Shown here in pieces: positions 6,552 through 47,870 of a DNA stretch of 64,000 nt. The position numbers were made by a program, and so were the translations under genes. Each line of letters begins with the position of its first letter. Position 1 is the first letter of the stretch. A model generated the notes under the pieces. The model worked only from the letters and a program-made list of their open reading frames with translations. It had not been told where the DNA came from and searched no databases. Source of the DNA: a phage; assembly GCA_033286805.1 (NCBI GenBank), contig GCA_033286805.1_4727.1; one strand, written 5' to 3'.

Positions 6552-7571
6552 TTACACCGCCACCTTAGCCTTGATAGCGGGGTGTGATTGATATCCGACG
6601 AACACAAAGTCTTCGTAACGGTAATCCGTAATACTTTCCGGTTTACGTACGATTGTTAGCTTCGGTAATGGGTACGGCTCACGGCTGAGCTGCTCTTTAA
6701 CCTGTTCGAAGTGGTTATGATAGATGTGGCAATCTCCACCCGTCCACACGAACTCACCAACGTCCATATTCAGCTGTTGGGCAAGCATATGCGTCAGCAA
6801 CGAATATGAGGCGATGTTGAACGGTGTTCCGAGCAACACGTCCTGTGATCTGGCTAACAGCATACAAGACAAGGCACGTGTTGGTACGTTATGCGCATTC
6901 AACCAAAGTTCCGTTTCACTATGTCGTACATCATCCGTAACCCACTGGGTTCTTAATACGTCGTTGCGTTGAACATAATCAACGCGTTCATCGACTGTGA
7001 GTTCGTGGGTATAGAACTGATAGAAACTGTGGCATGCTGGAAGCGCCATATCGTCTAAATCGCCTACGTTCCACGCGCTAACGATGATCCGTCGAGAATC
7101 AGGATCTTCTTTAAGCTGACGCATCACGTTTGCGATTTGGTCGTGGTGTTTAACATACAAGAGATGTTTGACCATACCGGCGTCAACAACACCGCAATAC
7201 TCATAGCCGCGTTGCATCAACTCACGAGTACGTTCTGTATCGTGCGGGACAACCATTTTGTAGTCGATCCATTCCCGCCATTGTTTGCCGTAAATAGGTC
7301 CTAGATTCCCTTCTTCGTCAGCCCACTCATTCCAGATGCGAACACCGTTATCCTGAAGATAAGCAACGTTTGTATCACCATTAAGAAACCAGAGCAGTTC
7401 GTGGATAACGCTCTTAAGGTGAATCTTCTTGGTGGTTACCAGCGGGAATCCTTTCTTCAAGTCAAAACGCATCTGACGTCCGAATACGGAACGGGTCCCG
7501 GTGCCTGTACGATCAGCTTTATCACGACCATTATCCATGATGTCTTGCAAAAGGTCCAAATACTGTTTCAT
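6552..7571 (-). CDS. thyA: thymidylate synthase (ThyA) with two internal insertions
   Basis: MKQYLDLLQ...DRTGTGT...FPLVTTKK...[20 protein letters not shown], catalytic-Cys region PACHSF all align to bacterial ThyA; GAGGA SD before ATG. Confidence 0.9.
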
Positions 7572-8537: not shown

Positions 8538-8561
8538 GAGGGGGTATTATCCCACCCCCTC
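8538..8561 (-). terminator. hairpin downstream of 8572-9105
   Basis: GAGGGGGT / ACCCCCTC stem then ATTTTGCTG on minus strand. Confidence 0.45.
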
Positions 8562-9542: not shown

Positions 9543-9857
9543 TTATTCTGTTTTCGGTGTTGAACCGTTCTTCTTGAAGTCGGATTCGTATTTCACGTTA
9601 GAATCGAGAACCTCACGAACGGTTTTATCCGTACAACCACGGGCGATGTATGCATTAAGATCGTCGCGTAATTTACGCATCGTTGTTTTATCCGCATCAG
9701 AAACATCTGACTTGGTAAGACGGAATGCGATTGCATCACGAATTTTATTCAGCGTTGCTGGGTTATTACGCTGCTCTGCAAATACCGCTTTGATGAATGT
9801 ACCGCTATCTTTCGAAGCGATGGCTGCATCAAGAATCTCAATATGCTTTTCAGACAT
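9543..9857 (-). CDS. hypothetical protein
   Basis: 104-aa ORF. Confidence 0.45.
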   Translation of the reverse strand: MSEKHIEILDAAIASKDSGTFIKAVFAEQRNNPATLNKIRDAIAFRLTKSDVSDADKTTMRKLRDDLNAYIARGCTDKTVREVLDSNVKYESDFKKNGSTPKTE

Positions 9858-9908
9858 CTTCTTTCCTTTAATAAACGATCATCGTCATATTCATTGCGCA
9901 GGACGCTA

Positions 9909-11138
9909 TCACTTCGGAAGCTTAGACACCGCCATGCTTCGCGCCATCGCAACGTCATACGCATCCATGATTGCATCACCGATAGCGGTATGACGGATCA
10001 ACGGAATACCCATATCTGGATACTCTTTGGTGCCTAAGATGGATACCGGTTTGTCTTGATATGCGGCAATCATCGAACGAATATCCTGAACCTGGTTATA
10101 ACGGCAGATTGGTTTGAAGCCTGCCTTACGGAACCAATGTTCTAATTGAGGCCAATCTGTTTCACCACGAGCAAGATAATAGAAGGTATCCTTACCGTAG
10201 TAATCAGTAAGCACATCACGAATTGTGTTAACAAACACGTTTACTTCGGTGATGGCTTCTTTATAACCCACCACCTTACAATGTTGAAAACAATAGTCAC
10301 GCGCTTCCTTCGGTGCTTTGGTTTGCCACCATTCTACTGTTGATTCACTGATGCGACCACCGTCAGCGATTTGACCATGAATGTCAGGGAAGATATCTAT
10401 ACGCGGGCCGTTAATAACAGATTCTGGGTTAGCTAGATCGAAGAACACCATACCGATTTCCAGCAGTACCCCGTTCTTTTCCAGACTGAGATTCTCAACA
10501 TCCAGACAAAAAGCGGGCTTCTCTACCGTTGAAAAATCAAAGCGTCCCTCATATCGTGGTGCTAGCTTAGCACCAAGGAACGTCTCTTGGATGAACTGGG
10601 AGAATGTTATATTCTCTGCTACTAAATCAATACCCAATTTACTTAGCAAAGGTATAAGTTCACGGTAGTTCTGCTTAATTAGCAACATTACTTGGTCGTT
10701 GACACAACAACTAATTGAGTAAAAGATATAAAAGATATCTAACGGTTTGTATGGAGCCTCAAAAATATGTTCCTGGAACGATTGGGCCAGCGCTTTATGT
10801 GTTTCCTCACGATGATTCATCAGTCGGTAAATAGCGCAACGCAGATAATGTCGAAGTGTTATCTCGTGAAGATGCGACGTATCTTCTTGAAATAACGTCA
10901 TGAAACCGTGATACGTATAATACTCTCCTCTTTTAATTTCTTCGTGGAGTTCTTTGTTCCCCTTTATTTCTTCTGGTGTTATCGGGTCGATCTGATCATG
11001 GATAATGTTGAGTAGATCGTCGCTGTGTACCTTAAACAGTTTTTCAGCGTCAAGATTAGGTAATGTCGCAATTGCTGCGTACATTAATGTTTCTGCGGGA
11101 TTAAGTTCTTTATTGTCGATTGTGATGGTTAAAGCCAT
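9909..11138 (-). CDS. DEDDh-type 3'-5' exonuclease domain protein with unknown N-terminal domain
   Basis: C-terminal half has Exo I LDVEN and Exo III HTAIGDAIMDAYD (H-x-A-x-x-D-A) motifs; ATG at 11138 with GAGGT SD (track start 11162 is TTG). Confidence 0.55.
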   Translation of the reverse strand: MALTITIDNKELNPAETLMYAAIATLPNLDAEKLFKVHSDDLLNIIHDQIDPITPEEIKGNKELHEEIKRGEYYTYHGFMTLFQEDTSHLHEITLRHYLRCAIYRLMNHREETHKALAQSFQEHIFEAPYKPLDIFYIFYSISCCVNDQVMLLIKQNYRELIPLLSKLGIDLVAENITFSQFIQETFLGAKLAPRYEGRFDFSTVEKPAFCLDVENLSLEKNGVLLEIGMVFFDLANPESVINGPRIDIFPDIHGQIADGGRISESTVEWWQTKAPKEARDYCFQHCKVVGYKEAITEVNVFVNTIRDVLTDYYGKDTFYYLARGETDWPQLEHWFRKAGFKPICRYNQVQDIRSMIAAYQDKPVSILGTKEYPDMGIPLIRHTAIGDAIMDAYDVAMARSMAVSKLPK

Positions 11139-11163
11139 TTTATTATACCTCATCGAAATCAAA

Positions 11164-11505
11164 TTAGTTCAGTTCTGGTTTATTAGCAGCCAGACCAAGT
11201 CCAGCTAATATCACGTAGTCGTACCAAGTTTTTACTTTTGCTTTCGCTTCATCTAAACTATCTGCGTTGATGTGCTGAAACTCATCGTTGACTGGGAAAG
11301 GTAAATCGCAGTCGTAGCTGGTATAATCCTTCCAACCTTTCCATTCGATAGTTAAAGAACCAAAAACGGTCTCAGCGACAACATGGTTATAGCGACAGTT
11401 TTCACATGGCGTACGCTCTTCCGACCAAACAAGCTCATGCTGCGCTAAAAGTTGTTGTACGACCGATAACGGCTGCTCTTCATTAAGTTCGATACTGTCT
11501 ATCAT
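11164..11505 (-). CDS. hypothetical protein
   Basis: 113-aa ORF. Confidence 0.45.
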   Translation of the reverse strand: MIDSIELNEEQPLSVVQQLLAQHELVWSEERTPCENCRYNHVVAETVFGSLTIEWKGWKDYTSYDCDLPFPVNDEFQHINADSLDEAKAKVKTWYDYVILAGLGLAANKPELN

Positions 11506-12098
11506 CGCATACCCTCCTTTTCCTTATCGTAATCACTGCAAATATTGACAAACGCCGTATTATCAGACAGCCTGCTGACCATCTGACGGATTGCGGCCAA
11601 CGGTTCAAGTTTAGGATTGATTGATTCACCGGTCAACGCGCTTATCGCTCGTGTGATCTCAACCAAATCAACGTTCGGGTCTTTGTCATCAATAATGAGT
11701 AAACTCTTCGCCGGTTTCTGACGACGTTTGATGATCAACAAATACGTGATGAGGTTCTCACGCCAAGCGTCAGAATCCAGATTGCGTATCAGGGTTAACG
11801 CACGACGTTCTTCCGCCCACGATGGTTTCTCACGGATAACAGGCATGTAAGATAATTGCTCAGCAAGCCCTTTCAAGCTGACACGGTTGGTGCCGCCAGG
11901 ATGCTCGCTAATCCGCAACATCTCGGTTAACAGACGGACATAGGCGGCTGTTGTCGAAACACCCCTCAGCGGCAGAAACACATTATGTCCTGGAACCCCA
12001 TCGTGACTCAGCGGTGCGATATACGCCATGAATCGCCGAATATCATCATCGGTCTGTTCTCCAGCAACGAACTTAAACGCTTCACGTAAAACGCTCAC
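11502..12098 (-). CDS. hypothetical protein
   Basis: 198-aa ORF. Confidence 0.5.
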   Translation of the reverse strand: MSVLREAFKFVAGEQTDDDIRRFMAYIAPLSHDGVPGHNVFLPLRGVSTTAAYVRLLTEMLRISEHPGGTNRVSLKGLAEQLSYMPVIREKPSWAEERRALTLIRNLDSDAWRENLITYLLIIKRRQKPAKSLLIIDDKDPNVDLVEITRAISALTGESINPKLEPLAAIRQMVSRLSDNTAFVNICSDYDKEKEGMR

Positions 12099-12384
12099 TA
12101 TGAAGTCTCCTTAATGTTTCTTGCATACGTAGTCTCTCCGGCAGGTACAGACGTTTGTATAGATCAATTAACAGATAACGCATAACAGAAGCGACCACCA
12201 GGTATTCACCTTCAGCTTCCGAATAACGTATCATGTTAATTGGGTAATTCAAATAAGAATAAGAAAAGAGATCATCGTTGGTAAGGTGATGATCTTCAAG
12301 ATACTGACGAAACAATTTTGCTAAGGCATCGTACTCCATTCCGTAGTAACACAACGACACCTGTCTTGCAGATAGTCGTTTCAT
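12082..12384 (-). CDS. hypothetical protein
   Basis: 100-aa ORF. Confidence 0.45.
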   Translation of the reverse strand: MKRLSARQVSLCYYGMEYDALAKLFRQYLEDHHLTNDDLFSYSYLNYPINMIRYSEAEGEYLVVASVMRYLLIDLYKRLYLPERLRMQETLRRLHSERFT

Positions 12385-13223
12385 GCTGGGTTACCTTTTA
12401 GTTTTCCACGTAACATGTCGACAACGCGTGAGGGATCAGAAATAACATTGGCGATAAGATGATCGATAGGTAGGTCGAGAATGATATTCTTCAGCTGGAA
12501 AGCCGTATCTTTACGACGCACGCCGTAGAACACGCCATCTTTAAACACAACCTCGTACGAAATGGGGAGCTGGCTAATAACCGTGTTAGCGTAATCACCC
12601 AACCACATCGACCCCGCCATCAGATGCGCACAAACAGCATGACTAATACGCACATCTTTGTTCTTCCGGTTAACGTCTTTGGTTTTCGACATGGTAACCA
12701 GAAGCTCACCGATCTTACTCAGCATATCGTCGTATACCCCAAAGAACTTAATCAGTTGTCGGGCACCTAACGATATATATGTTTCTCGTGGTAAGACACA
12801 ACACACCTGCGGTAACGTTCCAACACCATAGACACAACTGTGTGGTGATAATGGAAGCAAATCAGCAACCGCGTTCTTGATGTTGTTATACTCAACGATA
12901 TCGTTGAACGGTGAAAGACCTTTCGTAATCGGTTTATCAATCGCCACATCGAACTCCGCGAACGTCCATGCTGCTTTACGCGGTTCCCCTTTCTGGTACG
13001 GTGGAGCCAGTACCGCGACAACACGAAGTCGATGTTCATGGGTATCACGTAGCTTAAGTTGGATACCCTCACCGTCACCCTCACGCACAAGTGAGTAGCG
13101 GCTTGCGCAGTCATCACATACCACCGTTGGTTCGTGTTGACCGTATGCTGCAAGCATCGGTTTACTAAGATCTTTATCACAGTGTTTACAGCGATGATCC
13201 TGTTCCTGATAACTGATTTTCAC
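12381..13223 (-). CDS. zinc-ribbon-containing hypothetical protein
   Basis: 280 aa; N-terminal CKHC...CDDC pair. Confidence 0.5.
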   Translation of the reverse strand: MKISYQEQDHRCKHCDKDLSKPMLAAYGQHEPTVVCDDCASRYSLVREGDGEGIQLKLRDTHEHRLRVVAVLAPPYQKGEPRKAAWTFAEFDVAIDKPITKGLSPFNDIVEYNNIKNAVADLLPLSPHSCVYGVGTLPQVCCVLPRETYISLGARQLIKFFGVYDDMLSKIGELLVTMSKTKDVNRKNKDVRISHAVCAHLMAGSMWLGDYANTVISQLPISYEVVFKDGVFYGVRRKDTAFQLKNIILDLPIDHLIANVISDPSRVVDMLRGKLKGNPA

Positions 13224-13238
13224 ACCGAGACCCCTTTG

Positions 13239-14195
13239 TTAATGCAAGACACGATCTGCTGGAATTATCGAGGCATTGCTGTCGGACAGATTCGTCGCTT
13301 TACGATCAGGACTGAATCGACGAGCGTTCTCTTCATGGTAGTTGACGGGGTTATCCTGTTTTAACAGTTCCATTGCCTCATCAAACGTTAGTTCCCGAAA
13401 TCCTCTTGGATAGAGGAACAGGGGTTCATCAACATCCAGCCCTTTAACAAACCCGTGTGACAACCAGACGCTACCATCAGCACTGTAAAGAACCGGCTCA
13501 ACGTCATAATCCAAGACGTATTGATACCAGTAATTAAACAGTTGGGCGATCCATCGATTACGTAATAAATAATCGATTACAACCGCACTACGCACGCTGT
13601 GGCACCAGCCGATCTTACCATCAACTTTCTGCAACAACGTACCCTCATTTGCTTGATGAATAACCGCATTAAATAACCACGCGAGATCGGTTGCGAAAAG
13701 TGCGGCTTCTTGAATATCGCTAATGTAACGCACGGGTATCGTCAGATGCGTGCGGTAATGCGACATCGCCTCTTCGTAGTTGTCTCCTTCGATGCAGAGA
13801 GTCCCGTTTGGTGACAGATGTCCCTGATTCAACGACTGACCAATATAAAGATCAGCGATCGCGTTAATATATTCGACGGTGCCCAAGGTTAACTCAGACA
13901 TAAAAGAATCGACATCAACAGCCATCGATGTGCTGGAAACAAACGGATTGGTTGGGCGAGTTGTATTAGAGAAAATAATCGACCAAATCGCTTCGTGTTT
14001 TTCATCCGATGGCATAAACGAAATATGGCGTTCCGCGCTATTATCGACAACAAATACCTTTACGGTTTTCAAGCAGTTAGTACAAACATAGCACGTGTTC
14101 GGCAACGGCATATCCGAAAACATATCGTAACGAATAGATGCCAGCGAAATGTCATGTCCGCAATGAGGGCATGTCGTATCAATAAGCGTTTTCAT
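13239..14195 (-). CDS. zinc-ribbon-containing hypothetical protein
   Basis: 318 aa; N-terminal CPHC...CYVCTNC. Confidence 0.5.
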   Translation of the reverse strand: MKTLIDTTCPHCGHDISLASIRYDMFSDMPLPNTCYVCTNCLKTVKVFVVDNSAERHISFMPSDEKHEAIWSIIFSNTTRPTNPFVSSTSMAVDVDSFMSELTLGTVEYINAIADLYIGQSLNQGHLSPNGTLCIEGDNYEEAMSHYRTHLTIPVRYISDIQEAALFATDLAWLFNAVIHQANEGTLLQKVDGKIGWCHSVRSAVVIDYLLRNRWIAQLFNYWYQYVLDYDVEPVLYSADGSVWLSHGFVKGLDVDEPLFLYPRGFRELTFDEAMELLKQDNPVNYHEENARRFSPDRKATNLSDSNASIIPADRVLH

Positions 14196-14458
14196 TATTG
14201 AATTCCTTTTGATAAGAATAACTGAATATCGGTAAACTGTTCTTCAGGAACATCGTCAGCAGCCGTTAGAACCTTAGAGCCATGTTCATTGAGGTAAGCT
14301 TCCCGTAGACAACGATGACGTCGATTGGCTTCCTGGAACTCAGTGTCCGTCATGTAAACCAGCGTAAACTTCGAACGTTTATTCGGATTGTATCTCTTAT
14401 TACGTTTCTTTGGTTTCTTCGCCATAATAGCCTCGTGAAGGTGGATGGATACACCCAT
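14195..14458 (-). CDS. hypothetical basic protein
   Basis: 87-aa ORF with KKPKKRNKRYNPNKR stretch. Confidence 0.4.
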   Translation of the reverse strand: MGVSIHLHEAIMAKKPKKRNKRYNPNKRSKFTLVYMTDTEFQEANRRHRCLREAYLNEHGSKVLTAADDVPEEQFTDIQLFLSKGIQ

Positions 14459-14473
14459 CCACCTTCCTCCATG

Positions 14474-14995
14474 TTAAAGTGCGTTCAATTCTTCAGGTGT
14501 ACGTACAGTACGCGTGTTGGGATCAACCATTGCTGGCACACCCGCTGGACATTTACGGACATCGATCCGCATCTCCGGTTCGATCGGACGAACGCGATAC
14601 GTTTTGCCATCATCGGTTAACACCGAAATGGTCAACGCTTGGTTCAATTCACTAACGAAGTTCACCAAACGTTGTTGTCCGCCCTTCGACCAGAAGTTAA
14701 GATCGGTTTCTCCATTGAAATAACTGATTCCATCAGCGGTTCCAATCGTGATTTTAACGATACCCGGATAGTCACGAAGAAGAGGTGCCTGATAACCTTC
14801 ATCTTCCGTATCCAGTTTTACCCACACGCCTCCCGTAGACAAACAGTTAACTTCCAAGGCGGTTGGTGCGCTGACTTCCGCCGATGACCAGGTATACATC
14901 GTGCCTAGTTTAGCGTGTCCGGTTTCCAGCTCGCTGTAATCCCAAGCATGTGCTGATGCCGTAACAAATAAAGCCGCAAGAAACAACTTTTTCAT
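14474..14995 (-). CDS. secreted/periplasmic protein (Sec signal peptide)
   Basis: N-terminus MKKLFLAALFVTASAHA with AHA-W cleavage-type site; 173 aa. Confidence 0.6.
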   Translation of the reverse strand: MKKLFLAALFVTASAHAWDYSELETGHAKLGTMYTWSSAEVSAPTALEVNCLSTGGVWVKLDTEDEGYQAPLLRDYPGIVKITIGTADGISYFNGETDLNFWSKGGQQRLVNFVSELNQALTISVLTDDGKTYRVRPIEPEMRIDVRKCPAGVPAMVDPNTRTVRTPEELNAL

Positions 14996-15050
14996 TCTTT
15001 TCGATTCCTATTAAAAGTGACCGATTTCTGTGGTCGAGATTGCTAATAAA

Positions 15051-15512
15051 TTAATTCCGGTTTTGTTTCCGTATTGCACGGTTACGTTTACGTTCTTGGT
15101 CTTTGACTGTACCAAGAAACTTCTTTAATTCTGACGGTTCGAGTGTACCCTCACGTACCACACCGTTTTGTTCGATATGGTACGACCAATAACCAACTTC
15201 AGCCGTTAAGGATAACGTTGTCGGTTGTTCGTCAGGTAACGATCGGGGTGAGAAAATAAAGAGTAATTCAAAAGGCGTTTCTCGGCTGATGGTGGGACGG
15301 ATACTAACGTCAAGACCCTCCCATCGCTGAGGTTTAAATATTCCTCCAGCAGCAATGATTGTCTCCGAGCGTTGATCTACAAGCTCGGCTAATTCACGAT
15401 CATCGTTGAAATAAATATCGTGAAGAATATCTGTGTCGATAAAAAACCCGCGTTCCAAATCGTGACGAACAATGGAATTCTTCATTCTGCTGCCTTTGTT
15501 GTTTGTTTTCAT
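15051..15512 (-). CDS. hypothetical protein
   Basis: 153-aa ORF. Confidence 0.45.
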   Translation of the reverse strand: MKTNNKGSRMKNSIVRHDLERGFFIDTDILHDIYFNDDRELAELVDQRSETIIAAGGIFKPQRWEGLDVSIRPTISRETPFELLFIFSPRSLPDEQPTTLSLTAEVGYWSYHIEQNGVVREGTLEPSELKKFLGTVKDQERKRNRAIRKQNRN

Positions 15513-15561
15513 GTCCTATACGAACACGAAAAACCGTTAATTTTTACCATAACCACATGCG

Positions 15562-15837
15562 TTAAAATTCCACACCGCGACCCGTCATCGACGAAGGAAC
15601 CGCGCGATAATAGAAGTAGATGTAATGGTCACGATGGCTAAAATAGTTTTTGCAAGCATAGAACTCTCCAGATCCAATGAATGATTTAATACGTGTAACT
15701 TGAGGGTGTCGTGCGATTAACGCCTGTATGACGATTTCCATTTGGTGTGCGCTCAAACCAGGTCGAGCTGCAACATGATAATGAAGCTCCCTAAGAAATC
15801 GTTTCCAGGGATCAGGTTGTGTCGATGATCGAGACAT
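15562..15837 (-). CDS. hypothetical protein
   Basis: 91-aa ORF, AAGGAG SD. Confidence 0.45.
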   Translation of the reverse strand: MSRSSTQPDPWKRFLRELHYHVAARPGLSAHQMEIVIQALIARHPQVTRIKSFIGSGEFYACKNYFSHRDHYIYFYYRAVPSSMTGRGVEF

Positions 15838-15875
15838 CTTTATCTCCTTAACGGTTGCTGGTAACGCGGCATAAA

Positions 15876-15893
15876 CCCTCCCCGAAGGGAGGG
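15876..15893 (-). terminator. GC-rich hairpin followed by TTTATGCCGCG motif
   Basis: CCCTCCC-CGAA-GGGAGGG immediately after stop of 15904-16461. Confidence 0.5.
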
Positions 15894-15903
15894 TGATTAA
15901 CGA

Positions 15904-16461
15904 TTACTCCATCCATACTTCTTCGTCGTAATGATTTTCTATCGCATTACGCCAAAAACGCACGGTGTCCAAACTAATCGGCGCATAAAAATGCTGATCA
16001 ACGCCGACATTAAGTCCGTTGGCCTTCGCTAACATACAGCGATGAATATGACCGAATAGATTGAAGTAGCCTGGGTTTCTTTCGCTGGGCTTATGGCATA
16101 GCCAGTAGGATTCGTCATTGCTAATCGGCAACACCAACGGATGTTCATAAACCGCAGCAAACCCCATACCGAGCAATTTATCACGCCATGCTTCAAAGCT
16201 TAATCCTGTTGCTTTGTATGCGTCTTCGTCCCAATTCCCCAATACCAATTGAACCTGGATATCAGAACGAATGGCTTCCACGAACTCGAACTTACCCCAA
16301 TCACCTAAATGCCATAACACACTGTTCTTTGGAAGCTTGTTGATGGCTTTCAGCATATGCTGGTTCATATCGGCGACGCTTGCGAACGGACGGCGTGAAT
16401 ACGTCCATGTACGCTCGCTATCAAAATGGGTATCCGACATAAAGAAGATGGACGGGGTCAT
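15904..16461 (-). CDS. calcineurin-like metallophosphoesterase
   Basis: Ordered motifs MSDTHFD, LGDWG, GNWDE, GHIH typical of metallophosphoesterase fold. Confidence 0.65.
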   Translation of the reverse strand: MTPSIFFMSDTHFDSERTWTYSRRPFASVADMNQHMLKAINKLPKNSVLWHLGDWGKFEFVEAIRSDIQVQLVLGNWDEDAYKATGLSFEAWRDKLLGMGFAAVYEHPLVLPISNDESYWLCHKPSERNPGYFNLFGHIHRCMLAKANGLNVGVDQHFYAPISLDTVRFWRNAIENHYDEEVWME

Positions 16462-16940
16462 TGATCTAATTGCTCCAGAAATGCACGACCCGATTTACTT
16501 GCTTTTAAATGCTGTTCTGCGGAAGTAAGCAGAAGATCGGTTGGTGTATATGCAGCGCTACCTTTCCACGCTGTTTTCAGTTTACCCTTTTCGATACTGA
16601 ACTGAATCAGTTGTTGGGTACCGAAGTTAAGCGTGTTCGTCGCGGCGCTAAATACACCACCCATCATGCTGTAACCAAAGACTTTCACGTTTTCCGTGTA
16701 GAAGTCATTGTCGATCAATTTGTTCTGGAGCTCGAGTTGGTCGGACGGCAGCAATCCCCCATCGAAGACGCTTAAAATACCAGCCAGGCGATACATACTC
16801 ACCTTTCCTGAAACGCCCACCACGTAGTTGCCGTACACGGTTTCTTCCAGTTTAGCAACAACGGTGCGATCGTCGGAGGTTTTCATCGAAACCTCAATAC
16901 CATCACCAACTTCTGTTAACGTTAAATCAACGATACTCAT
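16458..16940 (-). CDS. hypothetical protein
   Basis: 160-aa ORF. Confidence 0.45.
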   Translation of the reverse strand: MSIVDLTLTEVGDGIEVSMKTSDDRTVVAKLEETVYGNYVVGVSGKVSMYRLAGILSVFDGGLLPSDQLELQNKLIDNDFYTENVKVFGYSMMGGVFSAATNTLNFGTQQLIQFSIEKGKLKTAWKGSAAYTPTDLLLTSAEQHLKASKSGRAFLEQLDQ

Positions 16941-16962
16941 TCATTATTCTCCGCTTTCATGT

Positions 16963-17649
16963 TTAACACATGATTTCACCATGTTTCTTTTCAACATACG
17001 TATAAACGTCATCCAAATAAGCAATGAGTTTATCACGATCCGCACAGAGCGATTTAATCATCGCAATCTCTTTCATATAAAGCTGCTGACCTAACGCCGG
17101 ATAGGTAATCCAAGCGTAGCCGTCAGGCGCAAATTTAGAAATAAGATAATCGGCGGTTTCCTGTAATGCGAACTCTTTGCTCATCTGGCCGTAACGATGT
17201 TCGATTGCACGGATACCAAAACGTTCGCTATCGAGACGACCCATATCCGCCAGACGAAGCACCTGAGAAGCAACAGAACTACGTGGACCAGAGTGCGAGG
17301 CACGATGTTCAGCAATAAGTACGCGTATCTCCTCGATGTCTTCCGGTGTGAAAATATCCTGCTCGTTACGAAGCAGGATAACCGATGCACGAATACCACC
17401 GATAAGGTGGTGGTATGTTCTGTTTTCGTGGCAAGCGATATCATGCATAAAAGCAGCGGTTAATAGACGACGACGTTCCGTGGGTCTGATGATCCCAACC
17501 ACATCAGCAAGTTCATTTGCCAGTTCAACAACAGCAAGCACATGTTCTTCTTGATGTGCAAGATCGTTCTTCCGAATATTTTCAATTACTTCAGCGCGAG
17601 TTTCCTGAGATAAGAAATTTAAACAATCCAACGAATATAAAGATTTCAT
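16963..17649 (-). CDS. HD-domain phosphohydrolase-like protein
   Basis: H...HD...H...D pattern (EEHVLAV ... AAFMHDIACHE); preceded by early-promoter-like motif. Confidence 0.45.
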   Translation of the reverse strand: MKSLYSLDCLNFLSQETRAEVIENIRKNDLAHQEEHVLAVVELANELADVVGIIRPTERRRLLTAAFMHDIACHENRTYHHLIGGIRASVILLRNEQDIFTPEDIEEIRVLIAEHRASHSGPRSSVASQVLRLADMGRLDSERFGIRAIEHRYGQMSKEFALQETADYLISKFAPDGYAWITYPALGQQLYMKEIAMIKSLCADRDKLIAYLDDVYTYVEKKHGEIMC

Positions 17650-17690: not shown

Positions 17691-17716
17691 CACGTAAGTA
17701 ATATAGCCGTGAAAGG
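17691..17716 (-). promoter_or_regulatory. early-promoter-like motif copy 1
   Basis: Minus-strand TTTCACGGCTATATTACTTACGTG ~48 nt upstream of ATG 17649; four near-identical copies in window. Confidence 0.45.
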
Positions 17717-35108: not shown

Positions 35109-36695
35109 TTATTTTTTTCCTCTTAAATTTACTACGTGTTCATTTAATCGAACAACTAATTGCACAAGCTGCTGACGGATATCTGCTGGACAAAGCATCA
35201 ATCCTTTACGATCAGCTGGGACTTTCTCAAGGATTTCCGGGCCTGCTGCTGAAACATCCCAGTCCCATTCACAAAACGCATCGGCCACCATGTTAATACC
35301 GACAACCGGTAAAGTTGTACGTTCATCTTCATACATGGCGTGTGGATACAATTTATTGACAGTAATGATCTCCTGTGGTTTTAATTGGTGGATAATCTGA
35401 TAAACATCGTCGCGTTTAACCTGGATACCTACGGTCAGCGCTGCTAGTTGAGGAAAACCCCAATGGTCTAATAAGCAAGCTGCGATCGCTAACGCTTTTG
35501 CTTGATGCACGGCTTCAATCGGTGCCAGACTTCTCGCCGGAAGATGGCTATCAAGCAACCATTGTGCCAGTGCTCGGCATCCACGGTTGATTGGTTTTAA
35601 CTCAACGGTGTCATCATGTTTAGCGTACGTGTATCCGTCGTAACGTTTTGCGATACGCGCATACATGTCTTCAACTTTACCGTAAGGTGCTGTTTCGTCG
35701 ACGTCGTGTAACACACGTTCCATCTGGGTAAGATACGCAATGTCGAGAATGAGTACACGTGGTGAACGTTTATCTTTCACCATCAACGCATCAATCACGC
35801 CTTGACTATCTTCATCTTGCGCGTTCCCTCGCGGGGTTTTCTCACGAATCGGTCCGCTGAAACGTCGTTCCGTACAAAGGTTATTCACATAGCTAAAGAT
35901 CAGTGTTACCAGATGCGTACAACTCACCAACACCCCATCTTTAACGACAGGCTGTACGGCTTGGTCCAAGTCGCGTACGGCGAGGCGGCGGACGATGGCT
36001 TGTGAACGCAACCAGCCGGGCACTTTCTCCGTCGACATGTAATCCACGGTCATCGACAGTGTGATCTTTTTATCACCCGTCTGTGCGCGGATATAGTCTT
36101 CCAGTCGGTCGTAAGCGGCGATATCATGGATGCGTGTTTTATACATCAACGACATGGCCACTTCTTCTTTACGGACTGTCCCGTACGTTTTCCCTGCGTC
36201 AATCAGAAACTCTGCCCAAATCGGCACCATCAGACGGACGTAGATCGCTAACGCTGTTAACTCAACGTAATCATTTCGTAAATAGGTTTTCTCAGGTATG
36301 TCATCCTCACCTAATGTTGTTTTCATGTCTGGTGGTAATTTTACCCAACCTGGGGTATTACACAACGCCAGAATCTCTTCATACACAACCGGTTTGTAAA
36401 TTTCACCAACAGCGCGACTCAACTCCTCCATTTGTTGTTGTGGAGCAATGTAGTTATCCATCGCTTCACGTGCTTTAACGAACCCTTCGAAGATGTCGTC
36501 AATTCGACGTGGGTTCTTTTGTTCTATCCAGGCGAGATACTTGTTAATCTCCCGCATCTGATTGCTAGCCATATCCCCATCAATCTTGATGTAACCCTGA
36601 CCTGAAAATTCTACAGTACGTCCATCACGATGTTTGATGAGATAGTGATCCAGCTTTTCTTTTCCTTGCGTCGTAATGACGGGCACTATGTGCAT
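35109..36695 (-). CDS. hypothetical protein (early-promoter-driven)
   Basis: Start set to ATG 36695 (MHIVPVITT) with AGAGG SD; track N-terminal extension would lie upstream of the promoter motif. Confidence 0.55.
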   Translation of the reverse strand: MHIVPVITTQGKEKLDHYLIKHRDGRTVEFSGQGYIKIDGDMASNQMREINKYLAWIEQKNPRRIDDIFEGFVKAREAMDNYIAPQQQMEELSRAVGEIYKPVVYEEILALCNTPGWVKLPPDMKTTLGEDDIPEKTYLRNDYVELTALAIYVRLMVPIWAEFLIDAGKTYGTVRKEEVAMSLMYKTRIHDIAAYDRLEDYIRAQTGDKKITLSMTVDYMSTEKVPGWLRSQAIVRRLAVRDLDQAVQPVVKDGVLVSCTHLVTLIFSYVNNLCTERRFSGPIREKTPRGNAQDEDSQGVIDALMVKDKRSPRVLILDIAYLTQMERVLHDVDETAPYGKVEDMYARIAKRYDGYTYAKHDDTVELKPINRGCRALAQWLLDSHLPARSLAPIEAVHQAKALAIAACLLDHWGFPQLAALTVGIQVKRDDVYQIIHQLKPQEIITVNKLYPHAMYEDERTTLPVVGINMVADAFCEWDWDVSAAGPEILEKVPADRKGLMLCPADIRQQLVQLVVRLNEHVVNLRGKK

Positions 36696-36750
36696 AACAA
36701 CCTCTTTTCGCGGTTCCCTGTTAAAACGTCTTCTGTGACGTCTACCACAA

Positions 36751-36772
36751 AGGTAATATAAGCGTGAATAAT
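36751..36772 (-). promoter_or_regulatory. early-promoter-like motif copy 2
   Basis: Minus-strand ...CACGCTTATATTACCTTT ~56 nt upstream of ATG 36695. Confidence 0.4.
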
Positions 36773-42024: not shown

Positions 42025-42050
42025 CACTTAAGTAATATAGCCGTGAAAAA
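42025..42050 (-). promoter_or_regulatory. early-promoter-like motif copy 3
   Basis: Minus-strand TTTTTCACGGCTATATTACTTAAGTG upstream of 41474-41938. Confidence 0.45.
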
Positions 42051-47845: not shown

Positions 47846-47870
47846 CACCTAGGTAATATAACCCTGAAAT
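47846..47870 (-). promoter_or_regulatory. early-promoter-like motif copy 4
   Basis: Minus-strand ATTTCAGGGTTATATTACCTAGGTG ~73 nt upstream of ATG 47780. Confidence 0.45.

Follow-up and report, generated by a model that had tools for sequence, protein, structure and literature searches.

Three predicted hydrolases and a dimorphic exonuclease N-terminal domain in a probable early gene block of a Goslar-like jumbo phage

The gene block and its early promoter motif

The stretch of phage DNA analyzed here (64,000 nucleotides of contig GCA_033286805.1_4727.1; hereafter, the window) carries, between positions 9909 and 17649, genes for three predicted hydrolases: an HD-domain protein, a small calcineurin-like metallophosphoesterase (MPE), and a DEDDh exonuclease with an additional N-terminal domain. 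These positions are 96.2% identical in nucleotide sequence to Escherichia phage vB_EcoM_Goslar (NC_048170), a nucleus-forming jumbo phage infecting E. coli, and on this sequence evidence, the source is a Goslar-like jumbo phage, i.e., a chimallivirus. The minus-strand genes are tightly packed and correspond one-to-one to Goslar gp159 (HD), gp158, gp157 (MPE), gp156-gp148, gp147 (exonuclease), and gp146 (Table 1); three of the 14 co-oriented genes encode the hydrolases. The three domain identifications are not new, being already present in the Goslar RefSeq record, where gp159 is labeled an HD domain-containing protein, gp157 a metallophosphoesterase family protein, gp147 a 3'-5' exoribonuclease, and gp156-gp148 hypothetical. 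What is really new in the region is only the N-terminal cassette of the DexA nuclease, an orphan that exists in two forms. For the block as a whole, we consider it reasonably probable that it is an early operon in which a DexA-type nuclease for scavenging or resection is encoded together with a YedJ/YpgQ-like nucleotide phosphohydrolase and a small phosphodiesterase.

An earlier sequence-only reading of the window had given the HD gene an early promoter motif of its own, and this holds for the extended form of the motif. The bare 8-mer TATATTAC is not enriched in the 64-kb window (4 found, 2.5 expected), but all four copies share the 23-nt context TTCACGGYTATATTACYTNNGTG. With one mismatch allowed, this context was counted 4 times where 0.01 would be expected, always on the minus strand and 41-86 nt upstream of an ORF start. 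The 23-nt motif agrees with the promoter consensus published for 201phi2-1, OBP/N1M2, and phiKZ, where it was read as early (PMC7058600): the conserved TATATTAC core, the upstream TTTCARR, the downstream GTG, and the position before an early operon are all present. The further copies, at 36746-36768, 42025-42047, and 47846-47868 (minus strand), precede by 50-86 nt the ORFs that start at 36695, 41938, and 47780.

Matches to sigma-70-like promoters are depleted between window positions 7500 and 18000 (7 found, 21 +/- 5 expected from shuffles), which fits a phage that does not rely on the host RNA polymerase. No convincing minus-strand terminator was found across the block before the hairpin at 8538-8561, which is likely the end of the leftward transcription unit or units; an Rfam search of the whole window gave nothing informative, and neither did NCBIfam comparisons of single proteins. 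Because a promoter motif precedes the HD gene, sigma-70 sites are depleted, and no terminator intervenes until 8538-8561, we infer that the genes from HD through the exonuclease most simply form one early transcription unit. Published RNA-seq data have 175 of the 249 Goslar genes expressed by 5 min.

The three genes had also been described as a cluster, and within Goslar-like genomes that description stands: the co-oriented order HD, 160-residue protein, MPE, nine genes, and exonuclease is perfectly kept in a Salmonella isolate assembly and in public sequencing-run and metagenome assemblies. Outside Goslar-like genomes, the linkage is not conserved, and none of the three has another of them nearby in RisingSun, ACP1, pTD1, Miami, Yoloswag, EFDG1, X1, or IME-SM1. 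In Salmonella phage SA002, the exonuclease and HD genes are 7 kb apart; a nearby "phosphohydrolase" of SA002 was considered as the same MPE and rejected, being unrelated to it. The gp158 ortholog was similarly rejected as a conserved partner of the HD protein, as the genes that follow HD in RisingSun and SA002 show no similarity to it; by tblastn, it matched only Goslar and no other phage. HD neighbors are not homologous between the phages compared.

The phylogenetic reach of each gene differs as well. By tblastn, the HD protein has homologs in 94 phage records, for the most part jumbo phages with genomes of 230-290 kb from Erwinia, Aeromonas, Vibrio, Klebsiella, and Serratia. The 133 records with MPE homologs have a patchy distribution quite unlike that of HD, comprising Yoloswag-like jumbo phages of Erwinia and phages of Enterococcus, Bacillus, Streptomyces, Flavobacterium, Sinorhizobium, and Xanthomonas. 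The full-length exonuclease is confined to Goslar-like phages, and its similarity to the stand-alone nucleases of Stenotrophomonas and Xanthomonas phages, Salmonella phage SA002, and several siphoviruses is limited to the catalytic domain. Because the linkage is absent and the distributions differ outside Goslar-like phages, the three enzymes are, as judged from these comparisons, independent acquisitions that share an early operon by chance. The supplements of the core-genome paper hold no phosphohydrolase or phosphoesterase entries and hence give no support for any of the three as a chimallivirus core gene.

Table 1. Features of the block, listed in the leftward direction of the minus strand (window coordinates).
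Feature	Position	Strand	Basis or remark
Early promoter motif TTCACGGCTATATTACTTACGTG, chimallivirus/phiKZ-type	17691..17713	-	41 nt upstream of HD ATG
HD-domain phosphohydrolase, gp159 ortholog, 228 aa, likely YedJ/YpgQ-like	16963..17649	-	PF01966, phrog_3921, profile matches
Hypothetical 160-aa protein, gp158 ortholog	16458..16940	-	Goslar-like phages only; no Pfam/PHROG match
Small metallophosphoesterase (MPE), gp157 ortholog, 185 aa	15904..16461	-	aq_1665/COG4186/phrog_547 family
Hypothetical gene 1 between MPE and exonuclease	15562-15837	-	ORF list
Hypothetical gene 2 between MPE and exonuclease	15051-15485	-	ORF list
Hypothetical gene 3 between MPE and exonuclease, signal-peptide-like N-terminus	14474-14995	-	ORF list
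Hypothetical gene 4 between MPE and exonuclease	14195-14458	-	ORF list
Hypothetical gene 5 between MPE and exonuclease	13239-14195	-	ORF list
Hypothetical gene 6 between MPE and exonuclease	12381-13223	-	ORF list
Hypothetical gene 7 between MPE and exonuclease	12082-12384	-	ORF list
Hypothetical gene 8 between MPE and exonuclease	11502-12098	-	ORF list
Hypothetical gene 9 between MPE and exonuclease, gp148 ortholog, phrog_33319	11164-11505	-	ORF list
Orphan acidic N-terminal domain of exonuclease, aa 1-204, form A	10527..11138	-	Core of dimorphic recombination cassette ~10510-11190
DexA-family DEDDh 3'-5' exonuclease domain, aa 205-409 of gp147 ortholog	9909..10526	-	PF16473, phrog_255, DexA profile match
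Hypothetical 104-aa gene, gp146 ortholog, downstream of exonuclease	9543..9857	-	Last clearly co-oriented gene of the run
Intrinsic-terminator-like hairpin after gp144 ortholog	8538..8561	-	Goslar has an annotated terminator at the equivalent place

Families of the three enzymes

The exonuclease ORF spans 9909-11162 (minus strand) when an upstream TTG at 11162 is taken as its start, but the ATG at 11138 is most likely the true start because it has a GAGG Shine-Dalgarno sequence and yields a 409-residue protein that matches the 409-residue homologs of form A (see below), including Goslar gp147. Residues 219-401 match PF16473 (E 3e-15, 56.8 bits against a cutoff of 27), and the protein also matches phrog_255. 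The DEDDh residues D213/E215, D328, and H383/D388 (409-residue numbering) are invariant or nearly so in 15 Goslar-like homologs and invariant across 7 distant phage relatives; the Exo I D-x-E, Exo II D, and Exo III H-x4-D motifs are all present, which places the protein in the DEDDh (DnaQ-like) superfamily. When the catalytic domain was combined with six distant phage relatives, the resulting profile matched T4 DexA (PDB 8KEL) at E 8.4e-36, profile positions 1-187 aligning to chain residues 1-207, whereas RNase T and other DEDDh enzymes reached only E 0.004-0.17. By its profile match, the catalytic domain is thus clearly assigned to the DexA type. It is under purifying selection, with dN/dS of 0.07-0.17 (dN/dS values for the hydrolase genes and the genes between them were computed against Goslar and two other Goslar-like genomes). 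In one Goslar-like lineage (P0010, 360 aa, on a 247-kb contig), the C-terminus after about residue 310 enters the frame of the window ORF at 9749-9979 (minus strand); this frame switch, relative to window positions 9749-10200 (minus strand), implies a deletion of about 0.3 kb that removed DEDDh motifs II and III.

It is very unlikely that the exonuclease acts instead on RNA, trimming or degrading cytoplasmic transcripts of the host or the phage. PF16473 takes its name from the Rv2179c domain and is labeled a 3'-5' exoribonuclease, the RefSeq product name is the same, and DEDDh enzymes commonly accept RNA. However, by far the best characterized relative is T4 DexA, a DNA exonuclease, matched over its full length at E 8.4e-36, and RNase T and other RNases score only E 0.07-0.1.

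The HD protein matches PF01966 (E 4e-8, 33.9 bits against a cutoff of 22) and phrog_3921. A family alignment was built from tblastn matches in phage genomes (a word-indexed search gave a single near-identical cluster), and H32, H36, H69-D70, H80-H81, H115, and D135 proved invariant in 8 phage homologs at ~30% identity. The H...HD...D metal-ligand motif is complete, making the protein a member of the HD-domain metal-dependent phosphohydrolase superfamily. The best solved relatives of the family profile are 2PQ7 (E 6e-7) and E. coli YedJ (3GW7, E 1.4e-5); YpgQ itself was not recovered in this comparison. NCBIfam PRK10119 is matched by four of the 8 family members and the SpoT, YfbR, and HD-GYP models by none, all scores lying below the curated cutoffs. 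YpgQ and YedJ are Mn-dependent (d)NTP pyrophosphohydrolases (PMC6692503), and the same subfamily includes PenF, a nucleoside 5'-monophosphatase (PMC11592144), and a plant cGMP phosphodiesterase. In Vibrio phage pTD1 (locus L005, 2393-4657), the HD homolog lies directly between the genes for dihydrofolate reductase and thymidylate synthase, and a thymidylate synthase gene (thyA) is also near HD in SA002 and in the block described here. The pTD1 context is the clearest contextual hint, albeit a modest pointer, of a role for the HD family in deoxynucleotide metabolism. The gene is under purifying selection (dN/dS 0.03-0.10).

The MPE matches PF12850 (E 3.7e-8) and phrog_547 (E 1e-30). Its predicted ligands D10, H12, D54, N76, H123, H138, and H140 are invariant or nearly so in an alignment of 82 sequences, and of the superfamily motifs DxH, GDxxD, GNH(D/E), H, and GHxH, only the third deviates, GNH being replaced by GN(W/Y). 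The protein is a member of the calcineurin-like MPE superfamily and, being close in sequence and structure to 1XM7, of the aq_1665/COG4186/phrog_547 family; its dN/dS is 0.02. Its neighbors elsewhere are replication or nucleic-acid genes, namely primase, exonuclease, and SSB in Yoloswag, and RNase H in EFDG1. In the latter, an Enterococcus phage (locus L020, 3467-6172), the order runs from RNase H through an adjacent pair of "phosphoesterase" genes, of which the phrog_547 homolog comes first, to a NinI-like Ser/Thr phosphatase. Some Enterococcus phages have two tblastn places for the MPE, which suggests paralogs. Purifying selection on all three hydrolase genes (dN/dS 0.02-0.17) argues that they are functional, and the three domain assignments of the sequence-only reading are borne out by these family matches and conserved residues.

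A published phage MPE with a counter-defense role is A10ZJ24 gp48 of a cluster A mycobacteriophage, which is reported to damage host DNA and has as relatives the 2',3'-cNMP phosphodiesterase D29 gp66 and Bxb1 gp47 (PMC12287305). We considered the MPE as a relative of this mycobacteriophage anti-defense/RDF family (phrog_221) and rejected it (hhalign probability 0.3%); no mycobacteriophage was among the 133 tblastn matches. The precedent thus holds at the superfamily level only.

These comparisons bear on the proposal, made in the sequence-only reading, that such folds could degrade cyclic-nucleotide immune signals. In its specific form, the HD protein, the MPE, or both would hydrolyze cyclic or NAD-derived messengers early in infection, disarming cytoplasmic CBASS, Pycsar, Thoeris, or type III CRISPR effectors outside the phage nucleus. 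We give this only a slim chance. The phage nucleus gives no protection from signaling systems that kill the cell, and the promoter motif points to early expression. Both families offer relatives of a suitable activity: the plant cGMP phosphodiesterase for the HD protein, and for the MPE, the cyclic-nucleotide phosphodiesterases of its superfamily, D29 gp66 included, while the MPE's own family has no known substrate. However, PADLOC gave no match for the exonuclease and MPE and only a marginal match of the HD protein to the Cas10 HD domain (E 0.017), and the published phage anti-defense MPE family is unrelated to phrog_547 beyond the superfamily. The DEDDh, MPE, and HD folds also differ from those of Acb1 (2H-phosphoesterase), Apyc1 (MBL), and AcrIII-1 (DUF1874). 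Strong purifying selection and high conservation among Goslar-like phages are likewise unlike arms-race loci. Signal degradation is less disfavored for the MPE than for the HD protein, but it has positive support for neither. Clear orthology to housekeeping enzymes had been named as what would speak against such a role; it was found for the exonuclease, which is of DexA type, and for the HD protein, which probably groups with YedJ/YpgQ, a housekeeping-type assignment is likely.

Two forms of the exonuclease N-terminal domain

The first ~204 residues of the exonuclease, which the sequence-only reading had already set apart as an unknown domain of about 200 residues, have no Pfam match. A profile of both forms of this N-domain, compared with 1.84 billion representative proteins, found its own family only, together with one weak match to a repeat protein. 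The latter (P0119, 1076 aa) has about 10 tandem repeats of LSDENIAKELQNAGIDLGDLTVxDIFTK that align with the N-domain segment LIPLLSKLGIDLVAENITFSQFI (window ~10560-10650, minus strand); the match may reflect a shared small helical motif or chance amplified by repetition. Profile comparison, which together with structure prediction had been suggested as a check, tied the catalytic domain to DexA, but an AlphaFold2 model of the full exonuclease on a 15-sequence alignment (mean pLDDT 43.6) was unusable for a fold search; the N-domain is mostly helical there.

Form A, found in the window and in Goslar, gives an exonuclease of 409 residues, and form B, with an extra acidic linker, one of 433-441. 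Between the two, the nuclease domain is 90-93% identical and the N-domain only 17-24%. In the genome designated L011, the other proteins of the block are 87-98% identical to those of the window, but the exonuclease is 54% identical. In nucleotide sequence, the identity of 90-98% gives way to 30-50% in the tract from ~11190 to 10510, and 95% is regained exactly where the nuclease domain begins. The two forms are separated by a dN of ~0.9, with saturated dS. The N-domain has a dN/dS of 0.29 among form A sequences, and no positive selection on the N-domain was seen, with the A-B comparison being saturated. Forms A and B are therefore best read as old alleles exchanged as a cassette, each still constrained, and not as products of recent hypermutation. 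They are probably homologous, with moderate support, since hhalign found them collinear over 180 columns (E 7.5e-5, probability 62%). Both are common, with clusters of up to 228 members. The idea that the forms track host genus was rejected, as each was found in phage genomes assembled together with E. coli, Salmonella, and Shigella isolates.

Because the N-domain is acidic (pI 5.3 and 4.7) and, in the poor model, mostly helical, it most likely serves in partner binding, targeting, or regulation and not in nucleic-acid binding. After the exonuclease, the gp148 ortholog is the gene of the block that diverges most (73-87% identity, dN/dS 0.17-0.28). As its 3' end lies inside the divergent recombination tract, this divergence is probably spill-over of cassette exchange and not co-variation.

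The dimorphism invites the view that the exonuclease is a weapon and not a salvage enzyme, destroying host DNA to stop defense-gene expression, as proposed for mycobacteriophage A10ZJ24 gp48, or attacking the DNA of a co-infecting phage, with the N-cassette setting its partner, compartment, or target. We regard this as unlikely. The acidic, orphan N-domain is a sharp replacement hotspot in genomes that are otherwise 87-98% identical, with two old alleles that are both common, and there are precedents: early phage hydrolases that damage host DNA as counter-defense, nuclease-mediated interference with selective nuclear import between related chimalliviruses, and the use of DexA homologs by bacteria against phages. 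However, the forms do not partition by host genus, and the N-domain within form A is under purifying selection without a sign of positive selection. The nuclease has also been lost in one natural lineage (P0010), and the dimorphism could equally be neutral mosaicism. It is quite unlikely, too, that the cassette is a specificity module tying the DexA nuclease to a strain-variable partner, with balancing selection keeping the two alleles and the nuclease serving in conflict rather than in salvage; such a partner may be, for example, the phage nuclear import or exclusion machinery, the genome of a competitor phage in co-infection, or a variable host repair or defense factor.

The nine genes between MPE and exonuclease have no informative family matches in Pfam, PHROG, or NCBIfam. 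They are in the same order in Goslar and in the genomes designated L009 and L011, and all nine are under purifying selection (dN/dS 0.03-0.28). The 173-residue product of hypothetical gene 3, which has no family matches, begins with the signal-peptide-like MKKLFLAALFVTASAHA and may thus be an early protein that is exported or periplasmic. The adjacent products of hypothetical genes 6 (280 aa) and 5 (318 aa) both have N-terminal paired CxxC motifs, CKHCDK...CDDC and CPHCGH...CTNC, which are zinc-ribbon-like, with marginal family matches only. Many assemblies of E. coli, Salmonella, and Shigella isolates contain near-complete Goslar-like genomes (contigs of 235-250 kb), consistent with recent reports of virulent phage genomes in bacterial assemblies.

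A probable nucleotide-metabolism operon and its known relatives

In the explanation that we prefer, the virion-RNA-polymerase-type early promoter at 17691-17713 would drive the 14 tightly packed genes, HD through exonuclease, and the region would be the promoter-proximal part of a single leftward unit. Its three independent accessory hydrolases, catalytically intact by motif, would reshape the infected cell's pool of nucleotides and nucleic acids. By family membership, the HD protein would be a YedJ/YpgQ-like metal-dependent (d)NTP/(d)NMP phosphohydrolase conditioning the nucleotide pool; the MPE, a binuclear-metal phosphodiesterase, would probably act on a nucleotide or nucleic-acid phosphoester; and the exonuclease would trim DNA ends in the 3'-5' direction to dNMPs, which would fit scavenging of the host chromosome, resection in recombination or homing, or both. 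The N-terminal domain would be a partner-binding, targeting, or regulatory module circulating in the Goslar-like population as two ancient recombining alleles. Degradation of the host chromosome has been reported for Goslar, in contrast to RAY and PCH45 (PMC10299810), and a substrate for a scavenging nuclease therefore exists.

Several points weigh against this explanation. DexA-like genes are absent from phiKZ-type phages that degrade host DNA too, so the exonuclease is at most a contributor to that process and no family-wide explanation of it, and the loss of motifs II and III in P0010 shows that, on the sequence of that lineage, the nuclease is naturally dispensable. Specificity within the YpgQ/YedJ subfamily varies among (d)NTP, arabinoside-5'-monophosphate, and cGMP, and the match of the HD protein to solved members spans only ~120 residues at E 1e-5 to 6e-7. 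The substrate of the MPE is a guess because its nearest relative, aq_1665, is itself uncharacterized, as are the members of COG4186 and PHROG 547.

The three hydrolases are thus largely ordinary, already annotated and of known families, with no sign of immune-signal degradation, and the result spares effort on an anti-defense screen with weak priors. Nucleus-forming phages shield their DNA yet depend on the cytoplasmic supply of nucleotides, and the early operon, with its DexA-type nuclease, likely YedJ/YpgQ-like hydrolase, and nearby thymidylate synthase, offers a concrete and testable route by which Goslar may turn the host chromosome into precursors. Two deeply diverged, recombining N-domain alleles in otherwise near-identical phages are a pattern frequently seen at interaction interfaces. 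As CRISPRi-ART makes Goslar genetically tractable, the partner and role of the N-domain are directly testable.

Among known systems, the mycobacteriophage proteins A10ZJ24 gp48, D29 gp66, and Bxb1 gp47 are phage metallophosphoesterases expressed early, as is predicted for the MPE, but they belong to phrog_221 and are 255 residues long, whereas the MPE belongs to phrog_547 and has 185. In aq_1665 of Aquifex aeolicus (1XM7), GNHD is kept; the phage family has Tyr in place of the His, and the MPE described here has Trp. The HD protein shares with YedJ (3GW7), 2PQ7, and B. subtilis YpgQ a size of ~220-240 residues and the D-x-A-H-x-x-x-H, HD, H...R-x-S, and A-D-R motifs over ~120 residues. It differs in that the match is weak (E 6e-7 to 1.4e-5) and confined to the N-terminal two thirds, and the phage HD family has its own C-terminal motif, KF..GYxW..P, together with an extra invariant HH pair and a Cys.

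The closest likeness is to T4 DexA, also an accessory gene of a phage that degrades host DNA. The C-terminal 205 residues of the exonuclease align with it end to end, sharing all DEDDh residues and the STxxWW motif, although phage DexA-like proteins are only 19-28% identical to the exonuclease. Of the DexA tetramer residues, S87 aligns to Gly and D90 to Glu in a weak pairwise alignment, and the temperature-switch behavior of DexA is therefore not to be assumed. DexA and all other phage relatives found are stand-alone proteins of ~170-230 residues, whereas the exonuclease described here has 409, the difference being the extra orphan N-terminal domain of 204 residues in form A or ~235 in form B.

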